A DNA stretch of 64,000 nt from NCBI GenBank assembly GCA_964035575.1, contig OZ037837.1, forward strand, positions 1,116,001-1,180,000, read 5' to 3'. The notes beneath the pieces were generated by a model that searched no databases, was not told the origin of the DNA, and saw nothing but the letters and a program-made list of their open reading frames with translations. A program made the translations under genes and the position numbers. Positions 13,098 through 62,515 of this stretch are shown piece by piece (the first letter of the stretch is position 1; each line of letters opens with the position of its first letter). The DNA is from Rhynchopus sp. YZ270_cl-10. Its lineage: Eukaryota.

Positions 13098-13106
13098 GGG
13101 ATTGGG

Positions 13107-19713: not shown

Positions 19714-19775
19714 TAACGTCGTTGCCCCAACACCACAACCCCACCACACAACAGAGCAACACAAAAGAAGACAAA

Positions 19776-21628
19776 ATGGAACTGACCATCAAGGACTGCT
19801 CCAACAACTTGTACGTGATCGAGGTGGGTGTGGATGACACAACGGAGACGATGCGGCAGAAGGTGGCGACTGCAGCAGGGTTGGCTGAGGACAGCTTCCA
19901 CATGGGCTTCGGAGGGAAGCAGGAAGGAGAGGACATCACGCAGCTGAGTGCTGGAGACACAGTCGTGCTGACGAAGACGAAGAAGGTGTGGCGTACCGTC
20001 TGCAACGCAGCTCCGAAGGCATGTCTGAGGCGGAGCTCCGTGGTGGCGATAGAGCGAGAGGTACATGGATGGGGGAGTATTCTGCTGAGACGGCGTACCC
20101 CTCCACAGAAGTTAGGGGCAGGAGGGCACTACCATTCATCCAGCGGGCTGAACAGGAGACATCTGCGCATGCTCGCTACCGGCACCATGAGCACGTGCGT
20201 CCAGGGGACGCACCCGTGAAGGCACCTGAAGGAGCGGTTCCGATCTTCCAGTTTGCGATATGTGTGCTGCACCGGAAGACGAAGTGTGATGCCTGCTCGA
20301 AGAACGCCCAGGCAGACCTGATGCATTGCTGCTTTGCGCACCACTCCAACGACGACGGGTTACCGATCCGACACGAAGCATGCACTAAGCATAGACTCTC
20401 GAGGTGCGGGAACTGTGTGCAAGAGAAGAGTACGCTGGATCACTGCTGCCGCCGCCACCACGACACCTCGAAGGGGCGACAGACGACGCTGGGAGGCTTC
20501 TTCAAGAAGAAGCAGACGAAGCAGAAGGATGGGCACAGCAGGGGCGGTGATGGACTTATGTAACATCACCTCCACGATGTATTGTATCACCTATCTCGGA
20601 TAGGGGTGCATGCATCGAAAACGGGCCCCCACCAGCTGACGAAGACGAAGAAGTACGAAGCCCTTGCAGAGCTTCATGCGTTGGGTGAGACCGATATCAC
20701 TGCAGAGAGGCTGGAGACTGTGGAGGATCCTGTGGTGGCGTGTTTGCTTCTGCAGGCAGAGGTTGCGACTGTCATTCCGGATGGCTTCTTGGCAGAGGCA
20801 TCGTTAACAACACTTGATCTGAGTGCTGTTTCGTGTGTGACGGAAATAGGTGACTATTTCCTTGCTGGGTGCACAATGTTGACAAGTATCAACCTCTCTG
20901 GGTTGTGCAATGTGACGCGGATCGGTGAGAACTTTCTTCAAGGCTGCAAGAGCCTCACAGCATTAGACTTGACACCACTCAGCAGGATTGCACACATAGG
21001 TGATCGCTTTCTTTCCCACTGCAGGAGCCTCACAGAACTAAAGTTGTCAGCACTCCGCAGAATTACGCAAATAGGCGACAACTTTCTTGAGGAGTGCAGC
21101 GGCCTCACAGAACTAGACTTGCCACCACTCAGCAATGTTACACAAATTTACGAATACTTTCTTGCCGGCTGCCGGGGCCTGACAGCATTAAACTTGTCAC
21201 CACTATGCAATGTTACACGCATAGGCGGTTGCTTTCTTCTCGGCTGCAGGAGCCTCTCAGAACTAGACTTGACACCACTCACCAATGTTGCGCAAATAGA
21301 CCGAAGATTTCTTGCCTTCTGCACCAGCCTCACAGAACTAGACTTATCACCACTCAGCAGGATTGCACACATAGGCGAATATTTTCTTTCCCGCTGCACC
21401 AGCCTCACAGTGCTTGACTTGTCCCCACTTGGCGCAGTCATGGACATGGGTCCACTACCTGCTCACGAGTACACTTCGTTGAAGAGCATCCACCTCTCCG
21501 GCTGCAGCAGCGCTGTGTCGAGTCGAGTACAGGAAAGCAACCTGAAGGAGCTTGTTGATGCACGTCCGAAACGTAGCAGAGACGAATCTCCCGAGCAGTG
21601 CCGCAAGCGACGGAGAGGCTCAGAATGA
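19776..21628 (+). CDS. UBL-LRR-NLS protein copy A (9 LRR units), interrupted by a 650-bp insertion or intron at 19986-20635
   Basis: First 70 codons match the family UBL; the LRR part resumes after duplicated LTKTKK codons; 394 aa if precisely spliced. Confidence 0.8.
19986..20635 (+). mobile_element. 650-bp insertion with GT...CAG ends and 18-19 bp target-site duplication
   Basis: (G)CTGACGAAGACGAAGAAG at 19967-19985 and 20635-20653; absent from five paralogs. Confidence 0.9.
20021..20563 (+). CDS. Insert-encoded Cys/His-repeat protein with C-terminal PIP-box motif (possibly 5' truncated)
   Basis: Two C-x2-H-x4-C-x2-C-x8/9-HCC-x2-HH units and QTTLGGFF followed by a Lys-rich tail; frame open from the insert's 5' end. 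Confidence 0.6.
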   Translation: MSEAELRGGDRARGTWMGEYSAETAYPSTEVRGRRALPFIQRAEQETSAHARYRHHEHVRPGDAPVKAPEGAVPIFQFAICVLHRKTKCDACSKNAQADLMHCCFAHHSNDDGLPIRHEACTKHRLSRCGNCVQEKSTLDHCCRRHHDTSKGRQTTLGGFFKKKQTKQKDGHSRGGDGLM

Positions 21629-23073
21629 TAGAAGGCCGGTGCGTTTGCAACCGGCAAGAGCACAGTCAGCCGCATCTGCATCGATGCGTCAGAGGCAACC
21701 CGCAGTACCATGGTCCGAAGCTTCTGTGAACTGTTGTTACGTTTTTGCTCTCGTTTGTCGGTCTTCCCACGAGAAGGGGTAATAGGGGAACAGGGGAATA
21801 GGGTCGGGGTGGGTACGACATTGGGGGATTCACGCATTCTTTGTTTCGATTTCATTTCCTGAAGAAGGGTTTTATTTGGGGAGGGGAGGTGGGGTGTTTG
21901 GGTAAGTAATGTGTGAAGAACAGCGAAGCCAAACATTCTTGTAAGAGGAGTGTACGTCTTGTGTTCACATCTAAAAGCAAAACTGTGAGGGAGACATACA
22001 AGTGTATCGTGTGGAAGAGAGGTAGGGAGTGGGGGTGTTCTGTTAAAAAGGGGCCGTTATGTAACACAGCATCTTCAGATTTTGTCTATTTTTTATGATG
22101 CAAAGAGTGAACAACTTATCAAACTTGTTTGAGCAGCTTTGCTGCGTATTGGGTGGTCAGTGATGAAAAGTGTAAACCAAAGAGCGACAAAATTGTTATT
22201 TGGTACGAGTGTGCAATACGTGTGGAAATGAAAGACGCGTTCTTCGGTTGTCATGAGTCTTACCGTCTCCCTCCCAGTGTTGGTAAAATTGAACCCGCCC
22301 CCTACTTTTCCTTTTTATGTTTTTCCCCCACCCCCGAAAACAATAAAGCAATAAAAACAATAAAGACAAAAGGGAGAGGTTGTGGGTGAAACGCACACAC
22401 CTCGACCTGTCGGTGAAGTGTGGCTCTACTCCAACCCGCCCCGGATGAGGACTGTTCAAGAAGTATACTTCACAAATGTTTTCCCCTCCATCCCTCATAT
22501 TTTGACAAGACTCTACCTGCCTGCGGGGTTTCTGGACAGATGTGCTTTGCGAACTGTGTCGTCCTTAAGGCAGGTGTGTAGGTCATCTGCACGACGCCTT
22601 ATGTCAGCGTGGCATGTCAGAGTAATGCAAAATGACAGGTGCGCATGTCATAATGACACGTGGTCCGTGTTGGTACTCATTGTCTGTACAGAACACACTT
22701 TTCCATGGTTTTGTTGTAACCCCCCTAAGGCACTCCTCGGGGGTTAGAAAAAGTGTGCGTTCTGTGCAGAGAATGACACGTACCACATATCATCGTTTTT
22801 GCCATGTCACGATGACACGTAGCGTCGTGTGGATGCATGTGAGGTGAGGGGGTGGGTCTGCACTGTCGCTATGCGTGACCCAAAGAGCAACCAACACAAA
22901 AGATAGAACACATCTGTCCACATACAAGGTGGCTCTGCCAGAACACCGTGCATTGGGTGACTCGCGTGGGTTTAGAAATGGCGTAAGGGTGGTACAGACA
23001 GGAGAGGTTCCCACATGTTTTCCGCCCAACCCCACAACCCCACCACACAACAGAGCAACACAAAAGAAGACAA

Positions 23074-25227
23074 ATGGAACTGACCATCAAGGACTGCTCC
23101 AACAACTTGTACGTGATCGAGGTGGGTGTGGATGACACAACGGAGACGATGCGGCAGAAGGTGGCGACTGCAGCAGGGTTGGCTGAGGACAGCTTCCACA
23201 TGGGCTTCGGAGGGAAGCAGGAAGGAGAGGACATCACGCAGCTGAGTGCTGGAGACACAGTCGTGCTGACGAAGACGAAGAAGTACAAAGCCATTGCAGA
23301 GCTTCATAAGTTGGGTGAGACCGATATCACTGCAGAGAGGCTGGAGACTGTGGAGGATCCTGTGGTGGCGTGTTTGCTTCTGCAGGCGGAGGTTGCGACT
23401 GTCATTCCGAATCGCTTCTTAGCAGACACATCGTTAACAACACTTGATCTCAGTGCTGTTTCGTGTGTGACGGAAATTCGTGACAATTTCCTTGCTGGGT
23501 GCGCAACGTTGACAAGTATCAACCTCTCTGGGTTGTGCAATGTGACGCGGATTGGTGAAGGCTTTCTTTCCAGTACAGGCCTCACAGCATTAGACTTGAC
23601 ACCACTCAGCAGGATTACGCAAATAGATGGTTCGTTTCTTGTCGGCTGCAGCGGCCTCACAGAACTAGACTTGTCGCCACTCAGCAGGATTGCACACATA
23701 GGTGATGGCTTTCTTGCCCGCTGCACGGGCCTCACAGAACTAGACTTGACACCACTCAGCAGGATTGCGCAAATCGACGAAAGCTTTCTTGAAGGCTGCA
23801 GCGGCCTCACAGCATTAGACTTGACACCACTCAGCAGGATTACGCAAATAGATGGTTCGTTTCTTGTCGGCTGCAGCGGCCTCACAGAACTAGATTTGTT
23901 GTCACTCAGCAGGATTGCACACATAGGTGATGGCTTTCTTGCCCGCTGCACGGGCCTCACAGAACTAGACTTGACACCACTCAGCAGGATTGCGCAAATC
24001 GACGAAAGCTTTCTTGAAGGCTGCAGCGGCCTCACAGCATTAGACTTATCACCATTCAGTAGGATTGCACACATAGGCGGTTGGTTTCTTCTCGGCTGCA
24101 GCAGTCTCACAGAACTAGACTTGACACCACTCAGCAGGATTGCGCAAATAGGCGAAAGCTTTCTTTCCGGCACAGGCCTCACAGAGATAGACTTGGCACC
24201 ACTCAGCAGGATTGTAAAAATAGATGGTTGCTTTCTTCTCGGCTGCAGGAGCCTCACAAAATTAAACTTGACACCACTCAGCAGGGTTGCGCAAATAGGC
24301 GAAAGGTTTCTTGAGGAGTGCAGCAGCCTCACAGAACTAGACTTGACACCACTCAGCAATGTCACAGACATAGGCGATTGCTTTCTTAACGACTGCAAGA
24401 GCCTCACAGTGCTGAACTTGGCACCACTCAGCAAGGTTACGATAGTTGGTAGTTTCTTTCTCTACGGCTGCAGCGGCCTCACAGAACTAGACTTGACATC
24501 GCTCGCCAATCTTACACAACTACGTGAATACTTTCTTGCCACCTGCACAGGCCTCACAGCATTAGATTTGTCGCCACTCACCAGGATTACACAACTTGGC
24601 GAGAACTTTCTTCAAGGCTGCAAGAGCCTCACAGTATTAGACTTGTCGCCACTCAGCAGGATTGCACACATAGGCGAAAGCTTTCTTGCCAACTGCTGGG
24701 GCCTCAGAGAACTAAACTTGTCGTCACTCAGCAATCTTTCAGACATTAGTGGTTGGTTTCTTGAGGACTGCAGGAGCCTCACAGAACTAAACTTGACACC
24801 ACTCAGCAATGTTACAGACATAGCTGACTGTTTTCTTGACGGCTGCACCAGCCTCACAGAACTAGACTTATCGCCACTCGAAAATATTGTGCAAATAGGA
24901 GAGTGCTTTCTCGACAACTGCAGCGGCCTCACAGAACTAGACTTGACGCCGCTGTGCATGGTTTATAAAATCGGTGATGGCTTTCTCGCCAACTGCACCA
25001 GCCTCACAGTGCTTGACTTATCCCCACTCGGCATAGTCATGCACATGGGTGAGCTACATGCTGACGAGTACACTTCGTTGAAGAGCATCCACCTCTCCGG
25101 CTGCAGCAGCGCTGTGTCGAGTCGAGTACAGGAAAGCAACCTGAAGGAGCTTGTTGATGCACGTCCGAAACGTAGCAGAGACGAATCTCCCGAGCAGTGC
25201 CGCAAGCGACGGAGAGGCTCAGAATGA
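23074..25227 (+). CDS. UBL-LRR-NLS protein copy B (22 LRR units, 717 aa)
   Basis: Intact ORF; UBL-like N-terminus, 25-aa repeats LTELDLxPLSxxxxIGxxFLxxCxx, C-terminal KRSR...RKRRR. Confidence 0.93.
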   Translation: MELTIKDCSNNLYVIEVGVDDTTETMRQKVATAAGLAEDSFHMGFGGKQEGEDITQLSAGDTVVLTKTKKYKAIAELHKLGETDITAERLETVEDPVVACLLLQAEVATVIPNRFLADTSLTTLDLSAVSCVTEIRDNFLAGCATLTSINLSGLCNVTRIGEGFLSSTGLTALDLTPLSRITQIDGSFLVGCSGLTELDLSPLSRIAHIGDGFLARCTGLTELDLTPLSRIAQIDESFLEGCSGLTALDLTPLSRITQIDGSFLVGCSGLTELDLLSLSRIAHIGDGFLARCTGLTELDLTPLSRIAQIDESFLEGCSGLTALDLSPFSRIAHIGGWFLLGCSSLTELDLTPLSRIAQIGESFLSGTGLTEIDLAPLSRIVKIDGCFLLGCRSLTKLNLTPLSRVAQIGERFLEECSSLTELDLTPLSNVTDIGDCFLNDCKSLTVLNLAPLSKVTIVGSFFLYGCSGLTELDLTSLANLTQLREYFLATCTGLTALDLSPLTRITQLGENFLQGCKSLTVLDLSPLSRIAHIGESFLANCWGLRELNLSSLSNLSDISGWFLEDCRSLTELNLTPLSNVTDIADCFLDGCTSLTELDLSPLENIVQIGECFLDNCSGLTELDLTPLCMVYKIGDGFLANCTSLTVLDLSPLGIVMHMGELHADEYTSLKSIHLSGCSSAVSSRVQESNLKELVDARPKRSRDESPEQCRKRRRGSE

Positions 25228-26549
25228 TAGAAGGCCGGTGCGTTTGCAACCGGCAAGAGCACAGTCAGCCGCATCTGCATCGATGCGTCAGAGGCAACCC
25301 GCAGTACCATGGTCCGAAGCTTCTGTGAACTGTTGTTACGTTTTTGCTCTCGTTTGTCGGTCTTGCCACGAGAAGGGGTAATAGGGTAATAGGGGAATAG
25401 GGTCGGGGTGGGTACGACATTGGGGGATTCACGCATTCTTTGTTTCGATTTCTTTTCCTGAAGAAGGGTTTTAGTTGGGGAGGGGAGGTGGGGTGTTTGG
25501 GTAAGTAATGTGTGAAGAACAGCGAAGCCAAACATTCTTGTAAGAGGAGTGTACGTCTTGTGTTCACATCTAAAAGCAAAACTGTGAGGGAGACATACAA
25601 GTGTATCGTGTGGAAGAGAGGTAGGGAGTGGGGGTGTTCTGTTAAAAGGTGCCGTGTTACGACCTGGCAACTTCCAGCAGTAGGTTAAGTAATCTTTCTT
25701 GTAAATTGTTGGATCATTATCTCCTCAGTGCATGAATGCCCCACGTGACTGGACACTTTTGTGTTTGTCATGTGGAGCTGTGGTTGCTCTTTCACGACTT
25801 TTTTCCTGTTCCTGGGTACCTGGACCTGGACCTGGGTATCTGGGTATCGGTACCTGGGTACCTGGGTACCAAGAAGGCAAAAAATCAAGAATCCGGATTA
25901 TGCGACAATGTGGATTATTAATCCACATTGTCGTAATCCACATTTTTAGAGTCCACATTGTCGTTTCCCCTTTTTTTTTTATATAGTAAACTGCTTATCA
26001 ACTTAAACCCGCAAACCCAGACCAGAATATTGAACGAGGATAGTGGTGTGGGAAGTATCCAAGTGGTTACTACACCTTTTGGGTCTGAACTGTCCTTTTT
26101 GCAAACGTTTTGGGTCTCTTAAATCTGGGGTGGAACAGGGATATGGTGCTTTTCGTGCATATGGGTGCACCATGTTCTTTGCTAAGAGAACGAAACAAAA
26201 TGAAATAGAAGCAACGCAAAGGGGACTGTTCAACAAGTATACTCCACGAACGTTTTCCCCTCCATCCCTCATATTTTGATACTAACTCGCCGTGTGCGCT
26301 GTGCTCCACACAGCACAACGTAACGTCCACGAAACACGGTGCTGGCATTTGTGCGGGAAGGGGAGGCACAAAGAACGCTGTCACTTCTGTGGTGATGAAT
26401 GGTGCAGAAGCTTGGCAACGATTACCAGCCTCTCACTCACCTTTCCTGTGTGCTGCAGTCTTGAACGCACACTCTGTTTCCATCCCATGCCACCCACCCA
26501 ACCCCTTCCAGACACCCCTGCACCCTCCCACCTCTTCGAAACACACAAC

Positions 26550-28772
26550 ATGGGTTCTGACACGCAGCCCACCGCACCACAGATGCCGAGCTGTGAGAAC
26601 TGTGGCGTGCCTGCACAGCTGCAGTGCGGGATGTGCGTGGAGCTGTTCTTCTGCGACAAGCCTGCGTGCTATGACGCTTGCCACACAAGGCCACGTGACC
26701 GTGAGGCACATCGCGCTTCTGTGACTGCGTTCGGGACATCGTCGAAGTGTGCACTTCACCCAGGCCAAGAGCTGTGCCTCGTCTGTGAAGACCCTGCGTG
26801 TGGAGACGCGTTGATCTGCACTCGCTGTGACAAGTGCGACACACATGTGGGACACAAGACAGTTTACATCACGGACTACATGAAACGCCAGCGTGACACC
26901 CTCTGCTCGCACGTGGCAGACCTGACAACACAGCGGACTGCTGCAAAGGAGGAGTGCCGTGTGCTTGAGGCACTCCCTCCCACAGAGGACAGGTACAAAG
27001 ACCTTCTCCTGCAGACACACGTCGGGCACCTCGTGATGCGTGAGGATGTGTCGCGCAGCGAAGTCATGTGTGAGGAGGAGGTGGTACGGAGCTGCCTCGC
27101 ACAAACACTCAGTCGTGAAGGGGAGGTGTGTGCGCTGAAGACGTTTGTTGCGAAGGCAGGACGCGCGATTGCTGAGTGCGAGGCGGTGTGCCAGCTTGGG
27201 GACGACCAGGTGTTGCGTGCGGTCACAGAGTCGCAGGCCATTATGCGGAACATCAACAGCATGGCAGCGAGTGGAGACCGCCACCGCCTTGTGGGTGCTG
27301 CACACCCACACGCAACGTTTTCCCTGAAGCTGCCTGTTTCGAACGTGCACGACGCCCTTGCCCAGATGTTGGCAAGGTTGCCACTTTTTGGTGATGGTTT
27401 CCCGCCATCCGCAGCCTCAAGCTCGTCAGGTGCAGCAGGGTTCCCGTCGTTTGCCCCGAGCAGCAGTGCTGCTGGTGCAGCGTCCTCAAGCGCCGCAGCA
27501 ACTGGTGGTTTCCCATCGTTTGCAGGAAGCTCGTCCAGCGCAACAGGGGGCTTCCCGTCGTTCGGCCCCAGTAGTGGAAACACATCAACAGCGACAGCAA
27601 CAACAGCAGCCTCCTCAAGCGCTGCAGCAGGTGGTTTCTCCTTCACTGCGAATAGGTCCGCATCAGCGAAAGGCGGCTTCCCTTCGTTTGCAGCATCAAC
27701 AGCAGCAGCAGCCTCCAGCACGACAGGGGGGTTCCCTTCCTTCTCTGTCTCTAGTTCCTCTGCACCTGCAGGCGGAGGGTTCCCTGCATTTGCCCCTACC
27801 TCCAGCATAGCAGCAGGCTTCCCTTCGTTTGCAGCATCAACAGCAGCCTCATCCAGCACGACAGGGGGTTTGTATGCCTTCTCTGCCTCTAGTTCATATG
27901 CACCTGCAGGCGGAGGGTTCCCTTCGTTCGGTAGCACTGCCCCTGCTGCAGCTGAACCGGCTGGGTTCAGCTTCGGAGCAACCTCAGCAGCGGCAACACC
28001 GTACTCAGCTACCCCCGCAGCAGCCGCATCAACGGGGTTCAGCTTCGCCCCTCCCACAACGCAGGTCAACACGCAGAGGAGGAAGCAGGATGCCATTGCA
28101 GCACTTCGTGTGTTGGGTGAGACAACACTTACAGCGGAAAGGTTGAAGCAGGTGAATGATCAGCGCAGTGATCCGAAGGTGGCTTGCTTGCTCCTGCAGG
28201 CAGGAGTTGCGACTGCGATTCCAGACAACTTCTTCTCGAGAACCAGAGTGACGTGCATTGATCTCAGTCATGCGTCTGCTGTGACTGTGATTGGGGACGA
28301 ATTTCTTCATGACTGCACAGCTTTGACCAAAGTTGACTTCAGTGGATTGCAAGCTGTCACCTCAATTGGGTACAGGTTCCTGCGTGGGTGCACAGCATTG
28401 TCGACAGTTGATCTGAGTGCATTCCAAGCTGTCACCTCGATCAGGTACTCGTTCCTCAAGGGGTGCACATCCTTGACCAAAGTTGACCTCAGTCCTTTAC
28501 GAGCGGTCACTGCGATTGACGAAGCGTTCCTGGCTGAGTGCACATCAGTGTCAACAGTTGACTTGAGTGGATTCCAAGCAGTCATCAGGATTGGGGACTG
28601 GTTCCTCAGCGGGTGCACATCATTGTCCACAGTTGACTTGAGTGCATTGCAAGCTGTCACCTCGACTGACAGGTACTTCCTCGGTGGGTGCACATCATTG
28701 AAGACCTTGCACGGAAAGGAAAAGTGCAGCAATGCTGTACTCAGAGTGCTACCACAACACCTACGACAGTGA
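26550..28772 (+). CDS. B-box1/B-box2/coiled-coil + GFPSF-repeat low-complexity region + LRR protein (alternative start 26487)
   Basis: CENC...CGMC...C...C...H...H and CALH...C...C...C..C...H..H zinc motifs, helical region, Ala/Ser/Gly region with GFPSF repeats, 25-aa LRRs. Confidence 0.88.
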   Translation: MGSDTQPTAPQMPSCENCGVPAQLQCGMCVELFFCDKPACYDACHTRPRDREAHRASVTAFGTSSKCALHPGQELCLVCEDPACGDALICTRCDKCDTHVGHKTVYITDYMKRQRDTLCSHVADLTTQRTAAKEECRVLEALPPTEDRYKDLLLQTHVGHLVMREDVSRSEVMCEEEVVRSCLAQTLSREGEVCALKTFVAKAGRAIAECEAVCQLGDDQVLRAVTESQAIMRNINSMAASGDRHRLVGAAHPHATFSLKLPVSNVHDALAQMLARLPLFGDGFPPSAASSSSGAAGFPSFAPSSSAAGAASSSAAATGGFPSFAGSSSSATGGFPSFGPSSGNTSTATATTAASSSAAAGGFSFTANRSASAKGGFPSFAASTAAAASSTTGGFPSFSVSSSSAPAGGGFPAFAPTSSIAAGFPSFAASTAASSSTTGGLYAFSASSSYAPAGGGFPSFGSTAPAAAEPAGFSFGATSAAATPYSATPAAAASTGFSFAPPTTQVNTQRRKQDAIAALRVLGETTLTAERLKQVNDQRSDPKVACLLLQAGVATAIPDNFFSRTRVTCIDLSHASAVTVIGDEFLHDCTALTKVDFSGLQAVTSIGYRFLRGCTALSTVDLSAFQAVTSIRYSFLKGCTSLTKVDLSPLRAVTAIDEAFLAECTSVSTVDLSGFQAVIRIGDWFLSGCTSLSTVDLSALQAVTSTDRYFLGGCTSLKTLHGKEKCSNAVLRVLPQHLRQ

Positions 28773-31341: not shown

Positions 31342-32523
31342 ATGGAACTGACCATCAAGGACTGCTCCAACAACTTGTACGTGATCGAGGTGGGTGTGGA
31401 TGACACAACGGAGACGATGCGGCAGAAGGTGGCGACTGCAGCAGGGTTAGCTGAGGACAGCTTCCACATGGGCTTCGGAGGGAAGCAGGAAGGAGAGGAC
31501 ATCACGCAGCTGAGTGCTGGAGACACAGTCGTGCTGACGAAGACGAAGAAGTACGAAGCCCTTGCAGAGCTTCATGCGTTGGGTGAGACCGATATCACTG
31601 CAGAGAGGCTGGAGACTGTGGAGGATCCTGTGGTGGCGTGTTTGCTTCTGCAGGCGGAAGTTGCGACTGTCATTCCGAGTAGCTTCTTGGCAGAGTCATC
31701 GTTAACAACACTTGATCTCAGTGCTGTTTCGTGTGTGACGGAAATAGGTGACTGTTTCCTTGCTGGGTGTTCAACGTTGACAAGTATCAACCTCTCTGGG
31801 TTGTGCAATGTGACGCGGATTGGTGGATCTTTTCTTTCCTGCTCAGGCCTCACAGAGCTAGACTTGACACCACTCAGCAGGATTACGCAAATAGGCGAAA
31901 GGTTTCTTGACAACTGCTGCGGCCTCACAGAACTAGACTTGTCGCCACTCAGCAATGTCACAGACATACGCGAAGGCTTTCTTTCCAACTGCTGGGGCCT
32001 CACAGATCTGAACATGTCACCACTTCGCAATGTGACGACAGTTGGTGGTTGGTTTCTTCACGGCTGCGAGAGCCTCACAGTATTAGACTTGACACCACTC
32101 AGCAGGATTGCACACATAGGTGATTGGTTTCTCTCCGAATGCAAGAGACTCATAGCACTAAACATGTCACCACTTCGCAATGTTACGATAGTTGGTGAAT
32201 ACTTTCTCGAGGACTGCAACAGCCTCACAGAGCTAGACTTGACACCACTCAGCAATGTTGCGCAAGTAGGCGAAGGCTTTCTTGCCAACTGCACAGGCCT
32301 CACAGAGCTAGACTTGTCACCTCTCAGAGCAGTCATGCACATGGGTGAGCTACCTGATCACCTGTACTCTTCGTTGAAGAGCATCCACCTCTCCGGCTGC
32401 AGCAGCGCTGTGTCGAGTCGAGTACAGGAAAGCAACCTGAAGGAGCTTGTTGATGCACGTCCGAAACGTAGCAGAGACGAATCTCCCGAGCAGTGCCGCA
32501 AGCGACGGAGAGGCTCAGAATGA
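31342..32523 (+). CDS. UBL-LRR-NLS protein copy C (9 LRR units, 393 aa)
   Basis: Family ATG after ACAAAAGAAGACAA; intact frame. Confidence 0.92.
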   Translation: MELTIKDCSNNLYVIEVGVDDTTETMRQKVATAAGLAEDSFHMGFGGKQEGEDITQLSAGDTVVLTKTKKYEALAELHALGETDITAERLETVEDPVVACLLLQAEVATVIPSSFLAESSLTTLDLSAVSCVTEIGDCFLAGCSTLTSINLSGLCNVTRIGGSFLSCSGLTELDLTPLSRITQIGERFLDNCCGLTELDLSPLSNVTDIREGFLSNCWGLTDLNMSPLRNVTTVGGWFLHGCESLTVLDLTPLSRIAHIGDWFLSECKRLIALNMSPLRNVTIVGEYFLEDCNSLTELDLTPLSNVAQVGEGFLANCTGLTELDLSPLRAVMHMGELPDHLYSSLKSIHLSGCSSAVSSRVQESNLKELVDARPKRSRDESPEQCRKRRRGSE

Positions 32524-47868: not shown

Positions 47869-49608
47869 ATGAAGCGTTCCTCCGTGAGTGAGTCCCCCAC
47901 CACAAAGAAGTCCCGGGTAGACAGCCCTGCACCCTCCCACCTCTCCGAAACACACAACATGGTGCCTGACACGCAGCCACAGATGCCGAGCTGTGAGAAC
48001 TGTGGCGTGCCTGCACAGCTGCAGTGCGGGATGTGCGTGGAGCTGTTCTTCTGCGACAAGCCTGCATGCTATGACGCTTGCCACACAAGGCCACGTGACC
48101 GTGAGGCACATCGCGCTTCTGTGACTGCGTTCGGGACATCGTCGAAGTGTGCACATCACCCAGGCCAAGAGCTGTCCCTCGTCTGTGAAGACCCTGCGTG
48201 TGGAGACGCGTTGATCTGCATGCATTGTGCTTACTTCGGACATACGGGACACAAGACAGTTGACATCACAAACTACATGAAACGCCAGTGCAACATCCTC
48301 TGCTCACACGTGTCAGACCTGACAACTCAGCGGACTGCTGCAAAGGAGAAGTGCCGTGTGCTTGAGGCACTCCCACCCACGGAGGACAGGTACAAAGACC
48401 TTCTCCTGCAGACAAACGTCGAGCACCTTGTGATGCGTGAGGATGTGTCGCGCAACGAAGTCATGTGTGAGGAGGAGTTGGCACGGAGCTTCCTCACACA
48501 GGCACTCAGTCGTGAAGGGGAGGTGTGTGCACTGAAGACGTTTGTTGCGAAGGCAGGACACGTGATTGCTGAGTGCGAGGCGGTGTGCCAGCTTGGGGAC
48601 GACCAGGTGTTGCGTGCGGTCACAGAGTCGCAGGTTGTTGTGCGAAGCATCAACAGCATGGCAGCGAGTGGAGACCGCCACCGCCTTGTGGGTGCTGCAC
48701 ACCCACACACAACGTTTTCCCTGAAGCTGCCTGTTTCGAACGTGCACGACGCCCTTGCCCAGATGTCTGCGATTGTTGTGCCTGTCCTTGTGCAGGGGTT
48801 GGATGGAGTGGAACACGAGATTGAGGTGAGTGTGGATGACACGGGCAGGGACTTGCGTCGGAAGGTGGCGTCTGCAGTGGGGTTGCGTGAAGACTGCTTC
48901 GACATGACTTTCGGAGATGAAGTGATTGCAGAAGGAGAGGACGTGGTGCAGCTGAGGGGTCACAGGGTTGTTGTAACGCAGGTCAGCACACAGCAGAGAA
49001 AGCAGGATGCTATTGCAGCACTAGTTGCGTTCGGTGAGACAACACTTACAGCTGAAAGGTTGAAGCAGGTGACTGATGAAGGCAATCTGACGGTGGCTTG
49101 CTTGCTCCTGCAGGCAGGAGCTGCGACTGCGATTCCAGACAACTTCTTCTCGAAAACTGCAGTGCCGTGGATGGATCTCAGTCATGCGTCTGCTGTGACT
49201 GTGATTGGGAACGAGGTACTTTATGACTGCACAGCTTTGACGAACCTCGACCTGAGTGGCTTGCAATCTGTCACCAGGATTGGGTACAGGTTCCTCCGTG
49301 GGTGCACAGCATTGTCGACAGTTGACTTGAGTGGATTGCAAGCTGTCACCAGCATTGGGAACGCGTTCCTCTGGGGGTGCACATCATTGTCGACAGTTGA
49401 TTTGAGTGGATTACAACGTGTCACCTCGATTGGGGACTGGTTCCTCTGCAAGTGCACATCATTGTTGACAGTTGATTTGAGTGGATTCCAAGGTGTCACC
49501 AGTGTTGGACACTACTTCCTCAAGGATTGCACATCATTGAAGACCTTGCACGGAAAGGACAAGTGCAGCAATGCTGTACTCATGAAGCTACCACAACACT
49601 TACGCTAG
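47869..49608 (+). CDS. B-box1/B-box2/coiled-coil + UBL + LRR protein (579 aa)
   Basis: N-terminal KR...KKSR, two B-box-like motifs, UBL-like VLVQGLDGVEHEIEVSVDDTGRDLRRKVA..., LRRs. Confidence 0.9.
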   Translation: MKRSSVSESPTTKKSRVDSPAPSHLSETHNMVPDTQPQMPSCENCGVPAQLQCGMCVELFFCDKPACYDACHTRPRDREAHRASVTAFGTSSKCAHHPGQELSLVCEDPACGDALICMHCAYFGHTGHKTVDITNYMKRQCNILCSHVSDLTTQRTAAKEKCRVLEALPPTEDRYKDLLLQTNVEHLVMREDVSRNEVMCEEELARSFLTQALSREGEVCALKTFVAKAGHVIAECEAVCQLGDDQVLRAVTESQVVVRSINSMAASGDRHRLVGAAHPHTTFSLKLPVSNVHDALAQMSAIVVPVLVQGLDGVEHEIEVSVDDTGRDLRRKVASAVGLREDCFDMTFGDEVIAEGEDVVQLRGHRVVVTQVSTQQRKQDAIAALVAFGETTLTAERLKQVTDEGNLTVACLLLQAGAATAIPDNFFSKTAVPWMDLSHASAVTVIGNEVLYDCTALTNLDLSGLQSVTRIGYRFLRGCTALSTVDLSGLQAVTSIGNAFLWGCTSLSTVDLSGLQRVTSIGDWFLCKCTSLLTVDLSGFQGVTSVGHYFLKDCTSLKTLHGKDKCSNAVLMKLPQHLR

Positions 49609-50450: not shown

Positions 50451-51476
50451 ATGGACGTGCACTTTGAGGATTTCAGAGCGAATCTGCACACAGTCGAGGT
50501 GGATGCAGATGACACAGTGGAGGGCTTGCGGCGGAAGGTGGCGACTGCAGCAGGGTTGGCTGAAGACGGCTTTTGCATGAGTTTCGGGGGCGAAGCGATG
50601 GGAGAAGGAGCGGGCTTGACGCAGCTGAGTGCTGGAGACACAATCGTCCTCACGAAGACGCAGAAGCAAGAAGCCCTTGCAGAGCTTCATGCGTTGGGTG
50701 AGACCGATATCACACCGGAGAGGCTGGAGACTGTGGAGGATCCTGTGGTGGCGTGTTTGCTTCTGCAGGCGGAGGTTGCGACTGTCATTCCGTATTGCTT
50801 TTTGGCAGACACAACGTTAACAACACTTGATCTCAGTGCTGAGTCCATTGTGACTCACATTAGAGACAGGTTCCTGTGCAGCTGCACCTCGTTGACAAGT
50901 GTCGACTTGTCTGGGTTGAGCAATGTCACGCAGGTGGGTGCACTCTTCCTTGGGTTCTGCACCAGCTTAACTACCCTGGATTTGGCACCACTCCGCAATA
51001 TGACGCAGATTGACAACAACTTTCTTTTCGGCTGCAAGAGCTTAACCAACGTCGATTTATCCCCACTCAGCAATGTGACGCAGGTTGGTATGCAGTTCCT
51101 GGGGAACTGCCCCAGTTTAGCGACCCTTGATTTGTCGCCACTCAGCAAGGTGACGCAAGTTGGTTCATACTTCCTCGAGGCGTGCAGCAGTTTAACGACC
51201 CTCAATTTATCACCACTCAGCAATGTGACGCGGGTGGAAGCGCACTTCCTGACAAATTGTAGCAGCTTAACTACTCTGGATTTGTCCCCACTGAGCAGGA
51301 TTACGTATTTTGGTCAGGATTGGAGTGGGACGAATTTTGCTGCTGGCTGCACTTCGTTGACGAGCATTTACCTTTCGGGATGCAGCAGTGTTGTGTCTGA
51401 CGAAGTGAGGAAGTGCGAGCTGAGGCATCTTGTGGTTGGTGAAGAAGGCCAAGAAGCTGAGGGAGCTTGTGGTTGA
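50451..51476 (+). CDS. Divergent UBL-LRR protein copy F; basic C-terminal tail displaced out of frame (to 51546)
   Basis: 341-aa ORF; ~37-bp imperfect duplication at ~51405-51475 stops the frame before ARPKRSRDESPEESQKRQRHAQ*. Confidence 0.8.
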   Translation: MDVHFEDFRANLHTVEVDADDTVEGLRRKVATAAGLAEDGFCMSFGGEAMGEGAGLTQLSAGDTIVLTKTQKQEALAELHALGETDITPERLETVEDPVVACLLLQAEVATVIPYCFLADTTLTTLDLSAESIVTHIRDRFLCSCTSLTSVDLSGLSNVTQVGALFLGFCTSLTTLDLAPLRNMTQIDNNFLFGCKSLTNVDLSPLSNVTQVGMQFLGNCPSLATLDLSPLSKVTQVGSYFLEACSSLTTLNLSPLSNVTRVEAHFLTNCSSLTTLDLSPLSRITYFGQDWSGTNFAAGCTSLTSIYLSGCSSVVSDEVRKCELRHLVVGEEGQEAEGACG

Positions 51477-52291: not shown

Positions 52292-52378
52292 GCCGTGATG
52301 ATATCAACTGGTGTTGGTTGCAGACTTCAAATCTGTAGGCGGGGTGACCCGCAGCGGTTCGATTCCGCCTTCGCGGTG
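52292..52378 (+). tRNA. tRNA-Sec: tRNA-Sec (UCA), second copy
   Basis: Same 87-nt sequence as 16516-16602, followed by CTTTTCTTTT. Confidence 0.92.
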
Positions 52379-53802: not shown

Positions 53803-55743
53803 ATGAAGCGTTCCTCCGTGAGTGAGTCCCCCACCACAAAGAAGTCCCGGGTGGACGGTCCTGCACCCTCCCACCTCTCCGAAACACACAACATGGCGCC
53901 TGACACGCAGCCCACCGCACCACAGATGCAGAGCTGTGAGAACTGTGGCGTGCCTGCACAGCTGCAGTGCGGGATCTGCACGGAGCTGTTCTTCTGCGAC
54001 AAGCCTGCGTGCTATGAAGTGTTCCACTCATCTTTATCAAGGCCACGTGACCGTGAGGCACATCGCGCTTCTGTGACTGCGTTCGGGACGTCGTCGAAGT
54101 GTGCACATCATCCAGGCCAAGAGCTGTGCGTCGTCTGTGAAGACCCTGCGTGTGGAGACGCGTTGATCTGCATGCGTTGTGCTTACTTCGGACACACGGG
54201 ACACAAGACAGTCGACATCACGGACTACATGAAACGCCAGTGCAACATCCTCCACTCACACGTGTCAGACCTGACAACACAGCGGACTGCTGCAAAGGAG
54301 AAGTGCCGTGTGCTTGAGGCACTCCCACCCACAGAGGACAGATACAAAGACCTTCTCCTGCAGACAAACGTCGGGCACTTCGTGATGCGTGAGGATGTGT
54401 CGCGCAACGAAGTCGTGTGTGAGGAGGAGTTGGCACGGAGCTTCCTCACACAGGCACTCAGTCGTGAAGGGGAGGTGTGTGCACTGAAGACGTTTGTTGC
54501 GAAAGCAGGACACATGATTGCTGAGTGCGAGGCGGTGTGCCAGCTTGGGGACGACCAGGTGTTGCGTGCGGTTACAGAGTCGCAGGTTGTTGTGCGGAGC
54601 ATCAACAACGTGGCAGCGAGTGGAGACCGCCACCGTCTTGTGGGTGCTGCAGGCCGACACGCAACGTTTTCCCTGGATCTTCCTGTTTCACACGTGCACA
54701 ACTCCCTTACCCAGTTGTCGGCGCTTGTTGTGCCTGTCCTTGTGCAGGGGTTGGATGGAGTGGAACACGAGATTGAGGTGAGTGTGTATGACACGGGCAG
54801 GTACCTGCTTCGGAAGGTGGCGTCTGTAGTGGGGTTGCGTGAAGGCTGCTTCGACATAACTTTCAGAGGTGCAGTGATTGCAGAAGGAGAGGACGTGGTG
54901 CAGCTGAGGGGTCACAGGGTTGTTGTAACGCTGACCGAGACAGAGAGGAGGAAGCAGGATGCCATTGCAGCACTTCGTGCGTTGGGTGAGACAACACTTA
55001 CATCACAAAGGTTGGGGCAGGTGACTGATCCGAAGGTGGCTTGCTTGCTCCTGCAGGCAGGAGTTGCGACTGCGATTCCAGACAACTTCTTCTCGAGTAC
55101 TGCAGTGACGTGCATTGATCTCAGTCATGCGTCTGCTGTGACTGCGATTGGGATGCAGGTACTTTATGGCTGCAGATCTTTGACGAAACTCGACCTGAGT
55201 GGATTACAACGTGTCACCTTGATTGGGCACTCGTTCCTCCACGGGTGCACAGCATTGTCTACAGTTGATCTGAGTGGATTACAAGCTGTCAACTCGCTTG
55301 GCAGTACGTTCCTCGCAGGGTGCACATCATTGTCGACACTTGATCTGAGTGGATTACAAGCTGTCACCTCGATTGGTGACTCGTTCCTCAAGGATTGCAC
55401 ATCATTGTCAACGATTGACCTGAGTGGATTGCAAGCTGTCAACTCGCTTGGCAGTACGTTCCTCGCAGGGTGCACATCATTGTCGACAGTTGATTTGAGT
55501 GGATTACAAGCTGTCACCTCGATTGGTGGCTCGTTCCTCCACGGGTGCACATCATTGTTGACAGTTGATTTGAGTGGATTACAACGTGTCACCAGTGTTG
55601 GGCACTGTCAAGGGTATCACCATCAAGGGTACTATCAAAGTGGGCACTATTTCCTCGGTGGGTGCACATCATTGAAGACCTTGCACGGAAAGGACAAGTG
55701 CAGCAATGCTGTACTCAGCGTGCTACCACAACACTTACGCTAG
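53803..55743 (+). CDS. B-box1/B-box2/coiled-coil + UBL + LRR protein (646 aa)
   Basis: Paralog of 47869-49608 with extra LRR units and a 14-aa insertion near the C-terminus. Confidence 0.9.
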   Translation: MKRSSVSESPTTKKSRVDGPAPSHLSETHNMAPDTQPTAPQMQSCENCGVPAQLQCGICTELFFCDKPACYEVFHSSLSRPRDREAHRASVTAFGTSSKCAHHPGQELCVVCEDPACGDALICMRCAYFGHTGHKTVDITDYMKRQCNILHSHVSDLTTQRTAAKEKCRVLEALPPTEDRYKDLLLQTNVGHFVMREDVSRNEVVCEEELARSFLTQALSREGEVCALKTFVAKAGHMIAECEAVCQLGDDQVLRAVTESQVVVRSINNVAASGDRHRLVGAAGRHATFSLDLPVSHVHNSLTQLSALVVPVLVQGLDGVEHEIEVSVYDTGRYLLRKVASVVGLREGCFDITFRGAVIAEGEDVVQLRGHRVVVTLTETERRKQDAIAALRALGETTLTSQRLGQVTDPKVACLLLQAGVATAIPDNFFSSTAVTCIDLSHASAVTAIGMQVLYGCRSLTKLDLSGLQRVTLIGHSFLHGCTALSTVDLSGLQAVNSLGSTFLAGCTSLSTLDLSGLQAVTSIGDSFLKDCTSLSTIDLSGLQAVNSLGSTFLAGCTSLSTVDLSGLQAVTSIGGSFLHGCTSLLTVDLSGLQRVTSVGHCQGYHHQGYYQSGHYFLGGCTSLKTLHGKDKCSNAVLSVLPQHLR

Positions 55744-58347: not shown

Positions 58348-60197
58348 ATGGAACTGACCATCAAGGACTGCTCCAACAACTTGTACGTGATCGAGGTGGG
58401 TGTGGATGACACAACGGAGACGATGCGGCAGAAGGTGGCGACTGCAGCAGGGTTGGCTGAGGACAGCTTCCACATGGGCTTCGGAGGGAAGCAGGAAGGA
58501 GAGGACATCACGCAGCTGAGTGCTGGAGACACAGTCGTGCTGACGAAGACGAAGAAGGTGTGGCGTACCGTCTGCAACGCAGCTCCGAAGGCATGTCTGA
58601 GGCGGAGCTCCGTGGTGGCGATAGAGCGAGAGGTACATGGATGGGGGAGTATTCTGCTGAGACGGCGTACCCCTCCACAGAAGTTAGGGGCAGGAGGGCA
58701 CTACCATTCATCCAGCGGGCTGAACAGGAGACATCTGCGCATGCTCGCTACCGGCACCATGAGCACGTGCGTCCAGGGGACGCACCCGTGAAGGCACCTG
58801 AAGGAGCGGTTCCGATCTTCCAGTTTGCGATATGTGTGCTGCACCGGAAGACGAAGTGTGATGCCTGCTCGAAGAACGCCCAGGCAGACCTGATGCATTG
58901 CTGCTTTGCGCACCACTCCAACGACGACGGGTTACCGATCCGACACGAAGCATGCACTAAGCATAGACTCTCGAGGTGCGGGAACTGTGTGCAAGAGAAG
59001 AGTACGCTGGATCACTGCTGCCGCCGCCACCACGACACCTCGAAGGGGCGACAGACGACGCTGGGAGGCTTCTTCAAGAAGAAGCAGACGAAGCAGAAGG
59101 ATGGGCACAGCAGGGGCGGTGATGGACTTATGTAACATCACCTCCACGATGTATTGTATCACCTATCTCGGATAGGGGTGCATGCATCGAAAACGGGCCC
59201 CCACCAGCTGACGAAGACGAAGAAGTACGAAGCCCTTGCAGAGCTTCATGCGTTGGGTGAGACCGATATCGCTGCAGAGAGGCTGGAGACTGTGGAGGAT
59301 CCTGTGGTGGCGTGTTTGCTTCTGCAGGCAGAGGTTGCGACTGTCATTCCGAATCGCTTCTTAGCAGACACATCGTTAACAACACTTGATCTCAGTGCTG
59401 TTTCGTGTGTGACGGAAATAGGTGACTATTTTCTTGGCGGGTGCACAACGTTGACAAGTATCAACCTCTCTGGGTTGTGCAATGTGACGCGGATTGGTGA
59501 CGACTTTCTTTTCTGCACAGGCCTCACAGCATTAGACTTGACACCACTCAGCAGGATTGCACACATAGGTGTTCGCTTTCTTGACGGCTGTGAGAGCCTC
59601 ACAGAACTAAAGTTGTCAGCACTCAGCAGGATTACGCAAATAGGCGAAAGGTTTCTTGAGGAGTGCAGCGGCCTCACAGAACTAGACTTGGCACCACTCA
59701 GCAATGTTACAGACGTAGGCGCATTCTTTCTGAACCACTGCAGCGGCCTCTCAGGGCTAGACTTGACATCACTCAGCAATGTTACAGACATTAATGGTTG
59801 GTTTCTCGACGGCTGCAGCAGCCTCACAGAGCTAGACTTGTCGCCACTCGAAACAGTTGCACACATAGGCGAATTCTTTCTTAACGACTGCAGCGGCCTC
59901 ACAGAACTAGACTTGTCGCCACTTTGTTATGTTTATCAAATTGATGCTTGCTTTCTTGCCAACTGCAGCGGCCTCACAGAACTAGACTTATCCCCACTCG
60001 GCGTAGTCATGCACATGGGTGTGCTACGTGCTGAGCAGTACACTTCGTTGAAGAGCATCCACCTCTCCGGCTGCAGCAGCGCTGTGTCGAGTCGAGTACA
60101 GGAAAGCAACCTGAAGGAGCTTGTTGATGCACGTCCGAAACGTAGCAGAGACGAATCTCCCGAGCAGTGCCGCAAGCGACGGAGAGGCTCAGAATGA
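58348..60197 (+). CDS. UBL-LRR-NLS protein copy G (9 LRR units), interrupted by the same 650-bp insertion or intron at 58558-59207
   Basis: Same structure as copy A; 393 aa if precisely spliced. Confidence 0.8.
58558..59207 (+). mobile_element. Second copy of the 650-bp GT...CAG insertion (internal ORF 58593-59135)
   Basis: Same TSD (58539-58557, 59207-59225); translations identical to the 19986 copy. Confidence 0.9.
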
Positions 60198-61485
60198 TAG
60201 AAGGCCGGTGCGTTTGCAACCGGCAAGAGCACAGTCAGCCGCATCTGCATCGATGCGTCAGAGGCAACCCGCAGTACCATGGTCCGAATCTTCTGTGAAC
60301 TGTTGTTACGTTTTTGCTCTCGTTTGTCGGTCTTGCCACGAGAAGGGGTAATAGGGGAATGGGGGAATAGGGTCGGGGTGGGTACGACATTGGGGGATTC
60401 ACGCATTTTTTGTTTCGATTTCATTTCCTGAAGAAGGGTTTTATTTGGGGAGGGGAGGTGGGGTGTTTGGGTAAGTACAGTGTGAAGAACAGCGAAGCCA
60501 AACAATTAACTGAAATATACAGAAAACAGCCCCTTTTAGACTACTCTGCCGTGGTGTCGGATGAGGGCACTATAGAGCCCCCCCCTATACCTACGGTGCA
60601 CGCGCACGGCCGTACGTCTGCGTCCGCCGCGCGGGCGCCGTGCGCACTTTCTGAGAATTCGCTGCGCGCGCGTGCGCACGGCAGTGCGCACGGCCCTTAT
60701 TCAACGTAGGAAGCCTGGCTCCTATACGTTGCTCTTTGTTGTACTGTACCAGCCCCTATGCGCAGGGGGGTTATCCCGGATTTCGGCGGACCTTGCGCAC
60801 TTCGAGAAAGGCGGAGAAACGCGTCTCACCCTCCTCTCACAAAACGGAACACACACAGTGGCTCGAGGAGTTGGGGAGCAGCACCGGAGCAGCAGCAGAA
60901 GACCTCCGCAAAGGGGGAAAGAGGTTGTCCCCGGATGTGGAGAACAATGACAACAAGCACTGCCGTACGTACTGCCGTGCACACGCCGTGCGCAGTGCGA
61001 AGTGCGCAAGGTACCCCAGACGCACTTTCTCAGAATTTTCTGCGCACGCGTGCGCGCGCAGCATAGCCCTAGGCATACCCCGAAAGCGAATACGTATTCG
61101 CCATATATTCGGATCCCAACCATGGGGTGCTTTCGTGCATTTGTCTGGCACCTCGGCTTGCCGTGGTTGCAGCACGAGAGCACCTTTGGCGTTCTTGCTG
61201 GGGTGGGTGGGGTGGGGTGCGCTGGTGTGGGGTGCCTATCTTGGGTGGTGTTTTTATTCAGTGTGTGGGTTCACTTTCGCGACATGGCACTGTGCCGTCT
61301 GTGCCCTCAGGCAGGTGGCAGCTGGTGGGTGTTCTTCTCCCAGGTCGTCTAAGCAGTCACCTACCATCGTGCGTCTTGCGGCTTCGTGCGGTGTCGTTGC
61401 ACGGCTCTGCCTGCCAAGGGGTTTCTACGTCGTTGCCCCAACCCCACAACCCCACCACACAACAGAGCAACACAAAAGAAGACAA

Positions 61486-62515
61486 ATGGAACTGACCATC
61501 AAGGACTGCTCCAACAACTTGTACGTGATCGAGGTGGGTGTGGATGACACAACGGAGACGATGCGGCAGAAGGTGGCGACTGCAGCAGGGTTGGCTGAGG
61601 ACAGCTTCCACATGGGCTTCGGAGGGAAGCAGGAAGGAGAGGACATCACGCAGCTGAGTGCTGGAGACACAGTAATGCTGACGAAGACGAAGAAGTACGA
61701 AGCCCTTGCAGAGCTTCATGCGTTGGGTGAGACCGATATCACTGCAGAGAGGCTGGAGACTGTGGAGGATCCTGTGGTGGCGTGTTTGCTTCTGCAGGCG
61801 GAGGTTGCGACTGTCATTCCGAATAGCTTCTTGGCACACACATCGTTAACAACACTTGATCTCAGTGCTGTTTCGTGTGTGACGGAAATAAGTTACTATT
61901 TTCTTGGCGGGTGTTCAACGTTGACAAGTGTCAACCTCTGGGTTGTGCAATGTGAAGCGGATTGGTGAAGGCTTTCTTTCCGGCACAGGCCTCACAGCAT
62001 TAGACTTGACACCACTCAGCAGTATTGCACACATAGGTGATTGGTTTCTCTCCGAATGCAAGAGCCTCATAGCACTAAACATGTCACCACTTCGCAATGT
62101 TACGATAGTTGGTGATTGGTTTCTCGGGGACTGCAGGAGCCTCACAGAGCTAGTCTTGACACCACTCAGCAATGTTACACAAATAGGCGAAAGCTTTCTT
62201 GCTAAATGCACAGGCCTCACAGAGCTAGACTTGACACCACTCAGCAATGTTACACAAATAGACGAAGGCTTTCTTGCCAACTGCACAGGACTCACAGTGC
62301 TTGACTTATCCCCACTCGGCGCAGTCATGCACATGGGTGTGCTACATGCTGACGAGTACACTTCGTTGAAGAGCATCCACCTCTCCGGCTGCAGCAGCGC
62401 TGTGTCGAGTCGAGTACAGGAAAGCAACCTGAAGGAGCTTGTTGATGCACGTCCGAAACGTAGCAGAGACGAATCTCCCGAGCAGTGCCGCAAGCGACGG
62501 AGAGGCTCAGAATGA
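61486..62515 (+). pseudogene. UBL-LRR-NLS copy H (7 LRR units) with a 2-bp frameshift
   Basis: AACCTCTGGG near 61933-61942 vs AACCTCTCTGGG in paralogs; both halves otherwise intact (real mutation or sequencing error). Confidence 0.8.

Follow-up and report, generated by a model that had tools for sequence, protein, structure and literature searches.

Whether free-living protists own diversified intracellular recognition is a question that the gene array described here makes testable. The array lies in a stretch of 64,000 nucleotides from Rhynchopus sp. YZ270_cl-10 (the window; positions 1,116,001 to 1,180,000 of contig OZ037837.1, GenBank assembly GCA_964035575.1) and holds seven genes of one family on the plus strand, starting at 19776 (A), 23074 (B), 31342 (C), 33738 (D), 37591 (E), 58348 (G) and 61486 (H). 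Each joins an N-terminal ubiquitin-like (UBL) domain and a linker to an array of leucine-rich repeat (LRR) units and a basic tail. An earlier note on this DNA had described fixed ends around shuffled repeats, and had likened the genes to the variable lymphocyte receptors (VLRs). The pattern that we find combines invariant ends with a middle that recombines and is under positive selection, with address tails that can be exchanged, and with the birth and death of genes. It is best read as a repertoire for recognition that is inherited and in conflict with a fast-changing counterpart.

Near-invariant ends around variable arrays

Cutting the arrays into units gave 9, 22, 9, 11, 12, 9 and 7 units for A to E, G and H, the same counts as in the earlier note. 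Most units are 75 nt long and seven are of a 72-nt type, the repeat period being 25 residues and sometimes 24, and the arrays are uninterrupted open frames in which a one-exon-per-repeat structure is absent. The near-identical N-terminus and identical tail that had been noticed also stand: the first 70 amino acids are the same in six genes (H has V64M), the 210 nt of the UBL show 0–3 differences in all 21 gene pairs, and the last 150 nt show none. The tail contains two basic clusters, which we take to fit the bipartite pattern of a nuclear localisation signal, and no signal peptide or transmembrane helix is visible in A, B, C, D, E, G or H. The ends hardly vary even at silent sites, and divergence is about tenfold higher in the array, with a silent pairwise divergence of 0.013–0.016 in the UBL, 0 in the tail and 0.11–0.13 in units 0–2.

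Read support for the arrays comes from short-read contigs, and the junction in gene D was judged from its sequence, not from reads. Of the 30 bins of 19400–39300, contigs cover 30, 30, 28 and 19 in four runs, each from a different study, and a 535-nt contig of run X6 matches 20960–21494, across units 3–9 of gene A, with 0 differences. Around gene H, run X5 leaves 3 of 30 bins, in the flanks, uncovered.

The arrays are mosaics

Several relationships between arrays that the earlier note had picked out are borne out by alignment. Gene D (33738..35072; 11 units), which had been described as the common N-terminus joined to the last block of B, matches B units 13.37–22.72 over its units 2.37–11.72 (22 mismatches in 702 nt), with its N-terminal part joined in register to this block at 7 shared nt. 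Gene E (37591..38994; 12 units) begins with a D-like start and G-like units 2–3, carries the middle block of B (E 4.0–10.35 corresponding to B 10.0–16.35, 14 mismatches in 477 nt) and then jumps to sequence of the B20/D9 type and other pieces. A similar picture emerges for gene C (31342..32523; UBL, linker, 9 units and basic tail, intact), whose units 5.97–7.65 match units 2.97–4.65 of gene H with 3 mismatches in 127 nt. Gene G had been called a mixture of A, D and E; its likeness to E (unit 3, 2 mismatches in 75 nt) and to A (unit 4, 5 in 75) is clear, but that to D is weaker (units 6–8, 12–16 in 75), with two short tracts showing 4 mismatches in 63–65 nt. Within gene B (23074..25227; UBL, linker, 22 units and basic tail in a single unbroken frame) units 3–5 recur as units 6–8 with 3 mismatches in 245 nt, a 225-bp internal duplication as assembled.

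Duplication and deletion alone, a history that the earlier note had named among those that would refute its reading, would predict collinear blocks and even divergence, and both predictions fail. If only in-register tracts are counted that span 60 nt or more and have no more than 4 mismatches per 60 (a level reached by 1.6% of all comparison windows), the order of tracts is reversed three times between A and B and once between C and G, and never in the other 19 gene pairs. Genes A and G are identical over the 878 nt of the UBL and the insertion that follows it and over 150 nt of the tail, and downstream they differ at 7 positions in 300. Their units 5–8 differ at 85 of 300 nt, and there 12 of the 56 codons for the same amino acid differ silently. 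Moreover, 17 of the 28 pairs of silent informative sites in codons 1–150, where homology is positional, are incompatible and imply a minimum of four exchanges; nine simulations without recombination reach the observed incompatibility with P between 0 and 0.04, according to their assumptions. The arrays are thus mosaic.

The idea that whole cassettes are exchanged does not survive. Breakpoints fall at many phases inside units, and the identity at the junctions of 44 inferred switches is as expected at random (median 5 nt, null median 5), so that the 75-bp unit is not a cassette and any in-register crossover or conversion yields a repeat that is new and often chimeric. Since short painted segments may in many cases be spurious, these conclusions rest on tracts of at least 60 nt. 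The VLR analogy is likewise unsupported as far as somatic assembly is concerned: all LRR matches found by tblastn and a motif scan of the window lie within genes, breakpoints ignore unit borders, and the scan turned up no orphan LRR cassettes, the only non-genic candidate being a short 3′ remnant of a Z-type gene (see below) near 17878. A preference for microhomology at junctions was considered and rejected on the same 44 switches. Differences were not seen to cluster as micro-conversion tracts (P 0.66 and 0.40); both alleles are found elsewhere in phase for 21 of 60 differences, compared to 19 of 120 other bases, which transition bias may explain. Taken together, exchange in register, both from gene to gene and inside a single gene, changes how long the arrays are and what they contain; it occurs at any phase of the unit and forms chimeric units.

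Copies are also lost. Gene H (61486..62515; 7 units) has a 2-nt deletion near 61937 that shifts the frame in unit 2, its reading frame stops after about 160 codons, and it is likely a pseudogene. In each of 4 runs, which belong to two studies, contigs from 61910 match exactly and without gaps across the frameshift; they have 28–30 letters on the short side, just under the 31-letter rule, and one run may be the source of the assembly. A divergent family member, gene F (50451..51476; 69% over amino acids 1–150), has its basic tail out of frame, downstream of a short duplication.

Diversifying change at six positions of the repeat

Variable positions were taken from a comparison of 432 distinct units, which belong to 111 relatives encoded off the window's contig; an entropy above 3 bits was reached at six positions per repeat: 14, 17, 18, 21, 22 and 24. 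Three measures then gave ratios above one at these positions, which had been chosen from other loci, and support the diversifying change that the earlier note had proposed. Among the anchored first units of the seven genes there are 21 amino-acid-changing events per 24.3 sites at the six positions compared to 7 silent events per 30.1 local sites, a ratio of 3.7 (p 0.001), or 4.6 (p 0.0002) with transition bias. For seven recently copied blocks the ratio is 1.9–2.4 (p 0.043–0.007) at the six positions, 0.8–1.0 at the x positions of the LxxLxL strand and 0.2–0.25 in the core. Dividing dN at the six positions by dS gives 1.8–2.6 for a set of 36 non-redundant units. The six positions therefore gain amino-acid changes faster than silent ones, and the core is under purifying selection. 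An excess of A–G changes (28 of 60) is absent in the flanks; adenine-directed mutagenesis was rejected as its source, since the excess follows purine-rich codons.

Predicted fold and ubiquitin-like surface

The protein is predicted to combine a ubiquitin fold with a solenoid like those of BspA and TpLRR. A beta-grasp N-terminus had been suggested from the sequence pattern, and the model of amino acids 1–70 supports it by its order of strands and helices and by Foldseek, which gives 264 matches at E ≤ 0.001; the rows listed are ubiquitin, NEDD8 and ISG15, with TM by target of about 0.7–0.78. The Pfam ubiquitin family reaches 17 bits on the same segment, below the cut-off of 25.4. Residues 1–68 are modelled as the ubiquitin fold and residues 69–104 as a conserved three-helix cap, a helix following the UBL directly with no free Gly extension. 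Pfam LRR_5 scores 239.2 bits in B and 74.7 bits in C against a cut-off of 27.7. The full model of gene C (predicted local distance difference test, pLDDT, 90.4) is closest to BspA/TpLRR solenoids, with 4fs7 first (VIA Z 19.3, root-mean-square deviation (rmsd) 5.2 over 284 aligned), then 4fdw (Z 18.4) and TpLRR 6mlx (Z 16.7, rmsd 3.8 over 200 aligned), and with other LRR classes from Z 15.9. Judged by repeat position rather than by coordinates, the variable positions come after the second short strand (positions 14–15) and not on the classical concave strand. No NACHT, NB-ARC or ROC-COR domain was found in 8 window proteins, 29 relatives or one longer relative, and the UBA family has no match at E ≤ 1 in B, C or F.

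The earlier note had further suggested that the UBL might deliver bound targets to the proteasome. UBL-UBA shuttle factors of the Rad23 and Dsk2 type dock there by a hydrophobic patch around Ile44 of ubiquitin. In our alignment this residue falls on Gly44, and the column is S27/G25/R1 among 53 relatives (Gly or Ser in 52), so that a docking patch of the Rad23 type appears remodelled and such delivery is unsupported. The Leu8 position is F, C, Y, L or W in relatives, the position that by eye we take to be that of Val70 is T in 49 and A in 4 of the 53, and the UBL is acidic, with 12 D/E compared to 7 K/R.

A large family and other carriers of the repeat

Searching with amino acids 1–150 found 508 proteins among 1331 candidates, and our estimate of family size comes from this protein search only. 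The best 120 of the 508 are all from ENA or the window and lie on about 29 contigs (told apart by length, by eye), probably of one assembly; 57 of them end in a basic bipartite tail, 22 in C-S-V-S, which we take to be CaaX-like, 1 in another CaaX-like sequence and 40 otherwise. Among the best 150 of 218,923 matches in a profile search, a list swamped by generic BspA repeats, 33 of 144 new proteins carry at least three units of the 25-residue type. The named eukaryotic relatives of the repeat are Diplonema japonicum and Flectonema neradi, and a protein of the D. japonicum transcript set has a UBL (E 3e-6 to the UBL profile), the 25-residue repeat and a hydrophobic C-terminus.

Three Holosporales proteins (including P0261 and P0310) share both the repeat and its six variable positions, their consensus being identical to the diplonemid one at 19 of 25 positions by eye. 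Diplonemids have been described as harbouring Holosporaceae endosymbionts with LRR genes beside effectors of a type VI secretion system (bioRxiv 719211). P0310 has in addition a signal-peptide-like start and, by eye, an F-box-like stretch. Ten proteins with the 25-residue repeat have an N-terminal KYLKYK-type motif, and an alignment search of viral contigs gave 11 loci, including contigs of giant-virus metagenome-assembled genomes (MAGs), that match this N-terminal part only; none of the matching contigs was seen to carry the repeat itself, and a search of viral contigs for relatives of P0184 gave none. In prokaryotic genomes the UBL plus linker had no match, and of 600 pattern matches none was confirmed.

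One further protein, P0268, has an N-terminal UBL-like stretch, at least 12 near-identical 25-residue repeats with variation confined to the same positions, and besides these a RINT1/TIP1 domain; it could be a gene-model fusion. Whole-protein matches in the ESM Atlas all score under 0.9. Some of its clusters join ubiquitin- or SUMO-like domains to DUF285 repeats (scores 0.81–0.83, leads only), which suggests that the combination of a UBL with a repeat solenoid arose elsewhere too. A search of the open-access literature turned up no paper describing this family.

A shared insertion in genes A and G

Genes A (19776..21628; UBL at 19776–19985, helical linker, 9 units, basic tail) and G (58348..60197; UBL, 9 units, basic tail) carry an identical 668-bp insertion directly after codon 70, at 19986–20653 and 58558–59225 respectively, which is absent from the other five genes. 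It starts with GT, ends with AG, has an 18-bp duplication resembling a target site, and could by predicted splicing be removed in frame at either of two AG acceptors. It holds a 191-codon Cys/His-rich open frame with no Pfam match. It is probably a mobile element, truncated and serving as an intron, and thus a candidate case of an intron gained very recently from such an element. The bin that holds A's insertion has a contig depth far above that of single-copy stretches, which hints at many copies of the insertion.

Neighbouring genes

All eleven LRR genes in the window (A to H and Z1 to Z3) lie on the plus strand, a layout that agrees with the co-transcribed gene groups reported for D. papillatum (PMC10161547). 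Z1 (26550..28772) encodes Cys-rich zinc-finger-like and B-box-like regions, a coiled coil predicted by eye and a linker and LRR as in A to H; in place of the UBL it has about 230 residues of low-complexity GGFPSF and Ser-Ala repeats that resemble the FG repeats of nucleoporins. Z2 (47869..49608) has a basic N-terminal peptide, which Z1 lacks, followed by zinc fingers with a B-box, a helical region, an internal UBL, the linker and LRR, and Z3 (53806..55743), which shares this peptide, is its paralog with more LRR units. Z2 and Z3 may be TRIM-like in their order of parts, with the B-box of Z2 below the cut-off (E 0.0011) and no RING match in Z1 to Z3; relatives are P0291 (without the UBL) and P0307 (with it). 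The remnant mentioned above (17878–18390) consists of the 3′ end of a Z-type gene and flank.

A dispersed repeat of 200–600 bp lies upstream of several family genes (15274–15497, 18596–18893, 30607–31341, 36620–37300, 40335–40995, 47390–47868, 53186–53802 and 61115–61485). Elsewhere the window holds a methyltransferase gene on the minus strand (624–1469; best match 50% identical, in Rhynchopus euleeides), a 5-kb minisatellite (about 2900–8000) up to a 200-N gap (8013–8212), open frames of 949 and 210 codons with no Pfam match (8214–11696), a (TACAG)n satellite of about 2 kb with adjoining short-unit arrays (12800–15050), a weak glycosyltransferase-34-like gene within the array (42775–44244; E 0.0034) and the beginning of an ankyrin-repeat gene (63722–64000). 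The methyltransferase match and the named relatives of the LRR unit both agree with a diplonemid host.

What the family may do

The explanation that we favour, with slightly more belief than doubt, is that A to H are young members of a large family encoding intracellular binders of fast-evolving foreign proteins, from symbiotic bacteria or viruses, which the UBL would tie to a partner in the host. The exchange would come about in inherited DNA, by ectopic recombination of the ordinary kind or by gene conversion, and would homogenise the ends, and selection would retain new array variants. The six variable positions would make up the binding face, and the tail would set the compartment, a basic tail directing the protein to the nucleus and a CaaX-like one to membranes. 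The UBL would be a fixed handle to one conserved partner, which would neutralise or remove the bound protein. On this explanation the locus offers a concrete family that bears the signs of an arms race and can be put to the test, and whose repeat is common to it and to bacteria that live in diplonemids; the scaffold, with invariant caps, six variable positions per repeat and tolerance of any in-register crossover, would amount to a natural library of intracellular binders.

Several observations weigh against this explanation. In the recent blocks, pN/pS taken across all positions reaches only 1.05–1.32, which is not significant; the counts are small (60 differences in the blocks, 28 events in the anchored units), and averaged over pairs the ratio in the anchored units comes to about 2 instead of 4. 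Where silent changes recur, counting the minimum of events can miss some of them, and the estimates come from counts of changes per site rather than from a codon model. We take VLRs and plant NLRs to vary the x positions of LxxLxL and not the six positions seen here, and variable positions that are shared with bacteria may be exposed, tolerant sites only. The search for a signalling or enzyme domain, a weak one, found only LRR families in the one longer relative among 299 candidates. Z1 and P0291 have no UBL, which is thus not essential to every member. One of the seven genes (H) is broken, two (A and G) rely on predicted splicing, and the ligand, cellular location and expression of A to H are deductions from their sequence.

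A specific form of the favoured explanation, unlikely as we see it, is a shuttle resembling midnolin, in which the LRR would catch a target and the UBL, with a C-terminal helix, would dock on the nuclear proteasome for ubiquitin-independent degradation with programmable specificity. The order of UBL, binding domain and basic tail with a predicted C-terminal helix fits, as does a UBL without a terminal GG. Many beta-grasp domains do not touch the proteasome, however, and the Gly or Ser at the Ile44 position, the acidic UBL, the helix immediately after the UBL in place of a free Gly extension and the replacement of the tail by CaaX-like ends in 22 of the best 120 relatives all speak against it. 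The objection from the Ile44 position is eased by the account of midnolin, whose UBL reaches RPN11 through Thr38, Thr41, Tyr43 and a C-terminal extension and not through the Ile44 patch (PMC12088389); position 13 of our UBL, which by our own count from residue numbers corresponds to Tyr43, is His, Tyr or Phe in 51 of 53 relatives. A bolder version, which we consider distinctly unlikely, would make the family a recombining, compartment-addressed ‘intrabody’ repertoire on an LRR scaffold shared with Holosporales, with hundreds of genes, arrays swapped in few generations, tails for nucleus and membranes and hand-over to the proteasome without ubiquitination.

The likeness to bacterial repeats also allows the proteins to be decoys or mimics, the host having taken the repeat from symbionts or viruses so that look-alikes of their LRR effectors compete for the same partners, host or foreign, and sense nothing. 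The 19 of 25 positions shared with Holosporales and the ten repeat proteins whose KYLKYK-type motif matches giant-virus MAG contigs agree with such an origin, but units of 25 residues give little signal, no viral contig was seen to encode the repeat itself, and the UBL and linker are unmatched in prokaryotic genomes; we think this very unlikely. There is a slim chance that the diversification is driven not by infection but by an internal conflict or by the recognition of self and non-self (mobile elements, drive, mating or fusion types). The basic tail suggests the nucleus, the surroundings are rich in repeats with the insertion in A and G besides, and fungal NLRs that shuffle repeats serve allorecognition (PMC13449251); against this, a single self-marker locus is hard to square with paralogs dispersed in their hundreds and with a CaaX-like subfamily, and no DNA-binding domain was found in A to H.

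A slimmer chance still attaches to a largely neutral or selfish expansion, in which an unstable coding minisatellite would have been amplified with the surrounding repeats, its exposed residues merely under relaxed constraint. The overall pN/pS near one in recent blocks, the damage to H and to the tail of F, and the dispersed repeats shared between the genes would be expected. The ratios above one at independently chosen positions over a core at 0.2 would not, nor would the keeping of frame and register by all rearrangements or the recurrence of a UBL with the 25-residue repeat in D. japonicum, and no transposase or reverse transcriptase was seen in the frames scanned. Lastly, programmed diversification within the cell line, as in VLRs or by a diversity-generating retroelement, or else assembly chimeras, is scarcely credible: the A/G contrast shows that an array can be replaced before even one change has arisen in 878 nt, and array support comes from short-read rather than long-read data, but every LRR match in the window lies inside a gene, junction identity and the A–G excess have the ordinary explanations given above, no reverse transcriptase occurs in 14 frames scanned, the 7 shared nt at the D junction are presumably too short for an assembler join, and exact contigs cross units 3–9 of A (X6) and pieces of H.

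Comparison with known systems

Like the UBL-LRR family, the VLRs of lamprey and hagfish have combinatorial LRR diversity between fixed ends. They are assembled somatically from flanking cassettes, are secreted or anchored by glycosylphosphatidylinositol and vary on the concave face, none of which is seen here.

The consensus period of BspA/TpLRR repeats is 23 residues, compared to 25 and sometimes 24 here, and the BspA-like family of Entamoeba has a CAAX subset. The UBL-LRR genes differ from BspA-like genes in their period with F-L-x-x-C and their N-terminal UBL, and A to H have no signal peptide or transmembrane helix. Shared with the BspA-like families of Trichomonas (911 genes) and Entamoeba are Pfam LRR_5, a vast expansion in a protist and a likely bacterial origin (PMC2843621); that paper mentions a CAAX search, and the word ubiquitin occurs 0 times in it. 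Midnolin similarly has an N-terminal integral UBL, which binds RPN11, a central binding domain and a C-terminal helix, which binds RPN1, but is a single conserved gene with a Catch domain, as opposed to a hypervariable multigene LRR family (PMC12088389).

Closer in their manner of change are the LRR genes of Tetrahymena, where a protist has hundreds to thousands of lineage-specific genes with variable repeat number and unequal crossing over, mostly without a transmembrane domain and proposed to sense bacteria; there each repeat is a 90-bp exon between phase-2 introns and selection is mostly purifying (PMC6564038), whereas here the repeats are intronless, exchange occurs at any phase, six positions diversify and the ends are a UBL and a targeting tail. 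A similar example is found in fungal NLRs with high internal conservation (Podospora het-d/het-e), which are intracellular and exchange near-identical repeats between genes with rapid turnover and elevated dN/dS (PMC13449251); the UBL-LRR family differs in having no NACHT/NB-ARC and no cell-death effector domain, and LRR instead of WD40, TPR or ANK repeats. The ROCO LRR genes of brown algae, candidate immune receptors in a eukaryote that is neither plant nor animal, combine LRR shuffling with diversifying selection, but have an exon per repeat and a ROC-COR GTPase (PMC11378527), both missing here.

The family thus works like the LRR arrays of Tetrahymena, the brown algal ROCOs and the repeat-shuffling fungal NLRs but belongs to none of them, because it has neither an exon-per-repeat structure nor a nucleotide-binding domain, and nothing in the window marks it as a VLR. 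That LRR arrays and NLR repeats are reshuffled in protists and fungi was known already; what is new is the joining of a UBL, an LRR array and a targeting tail, an architecture unlike that of NLRs, ROCOs and VLRs.

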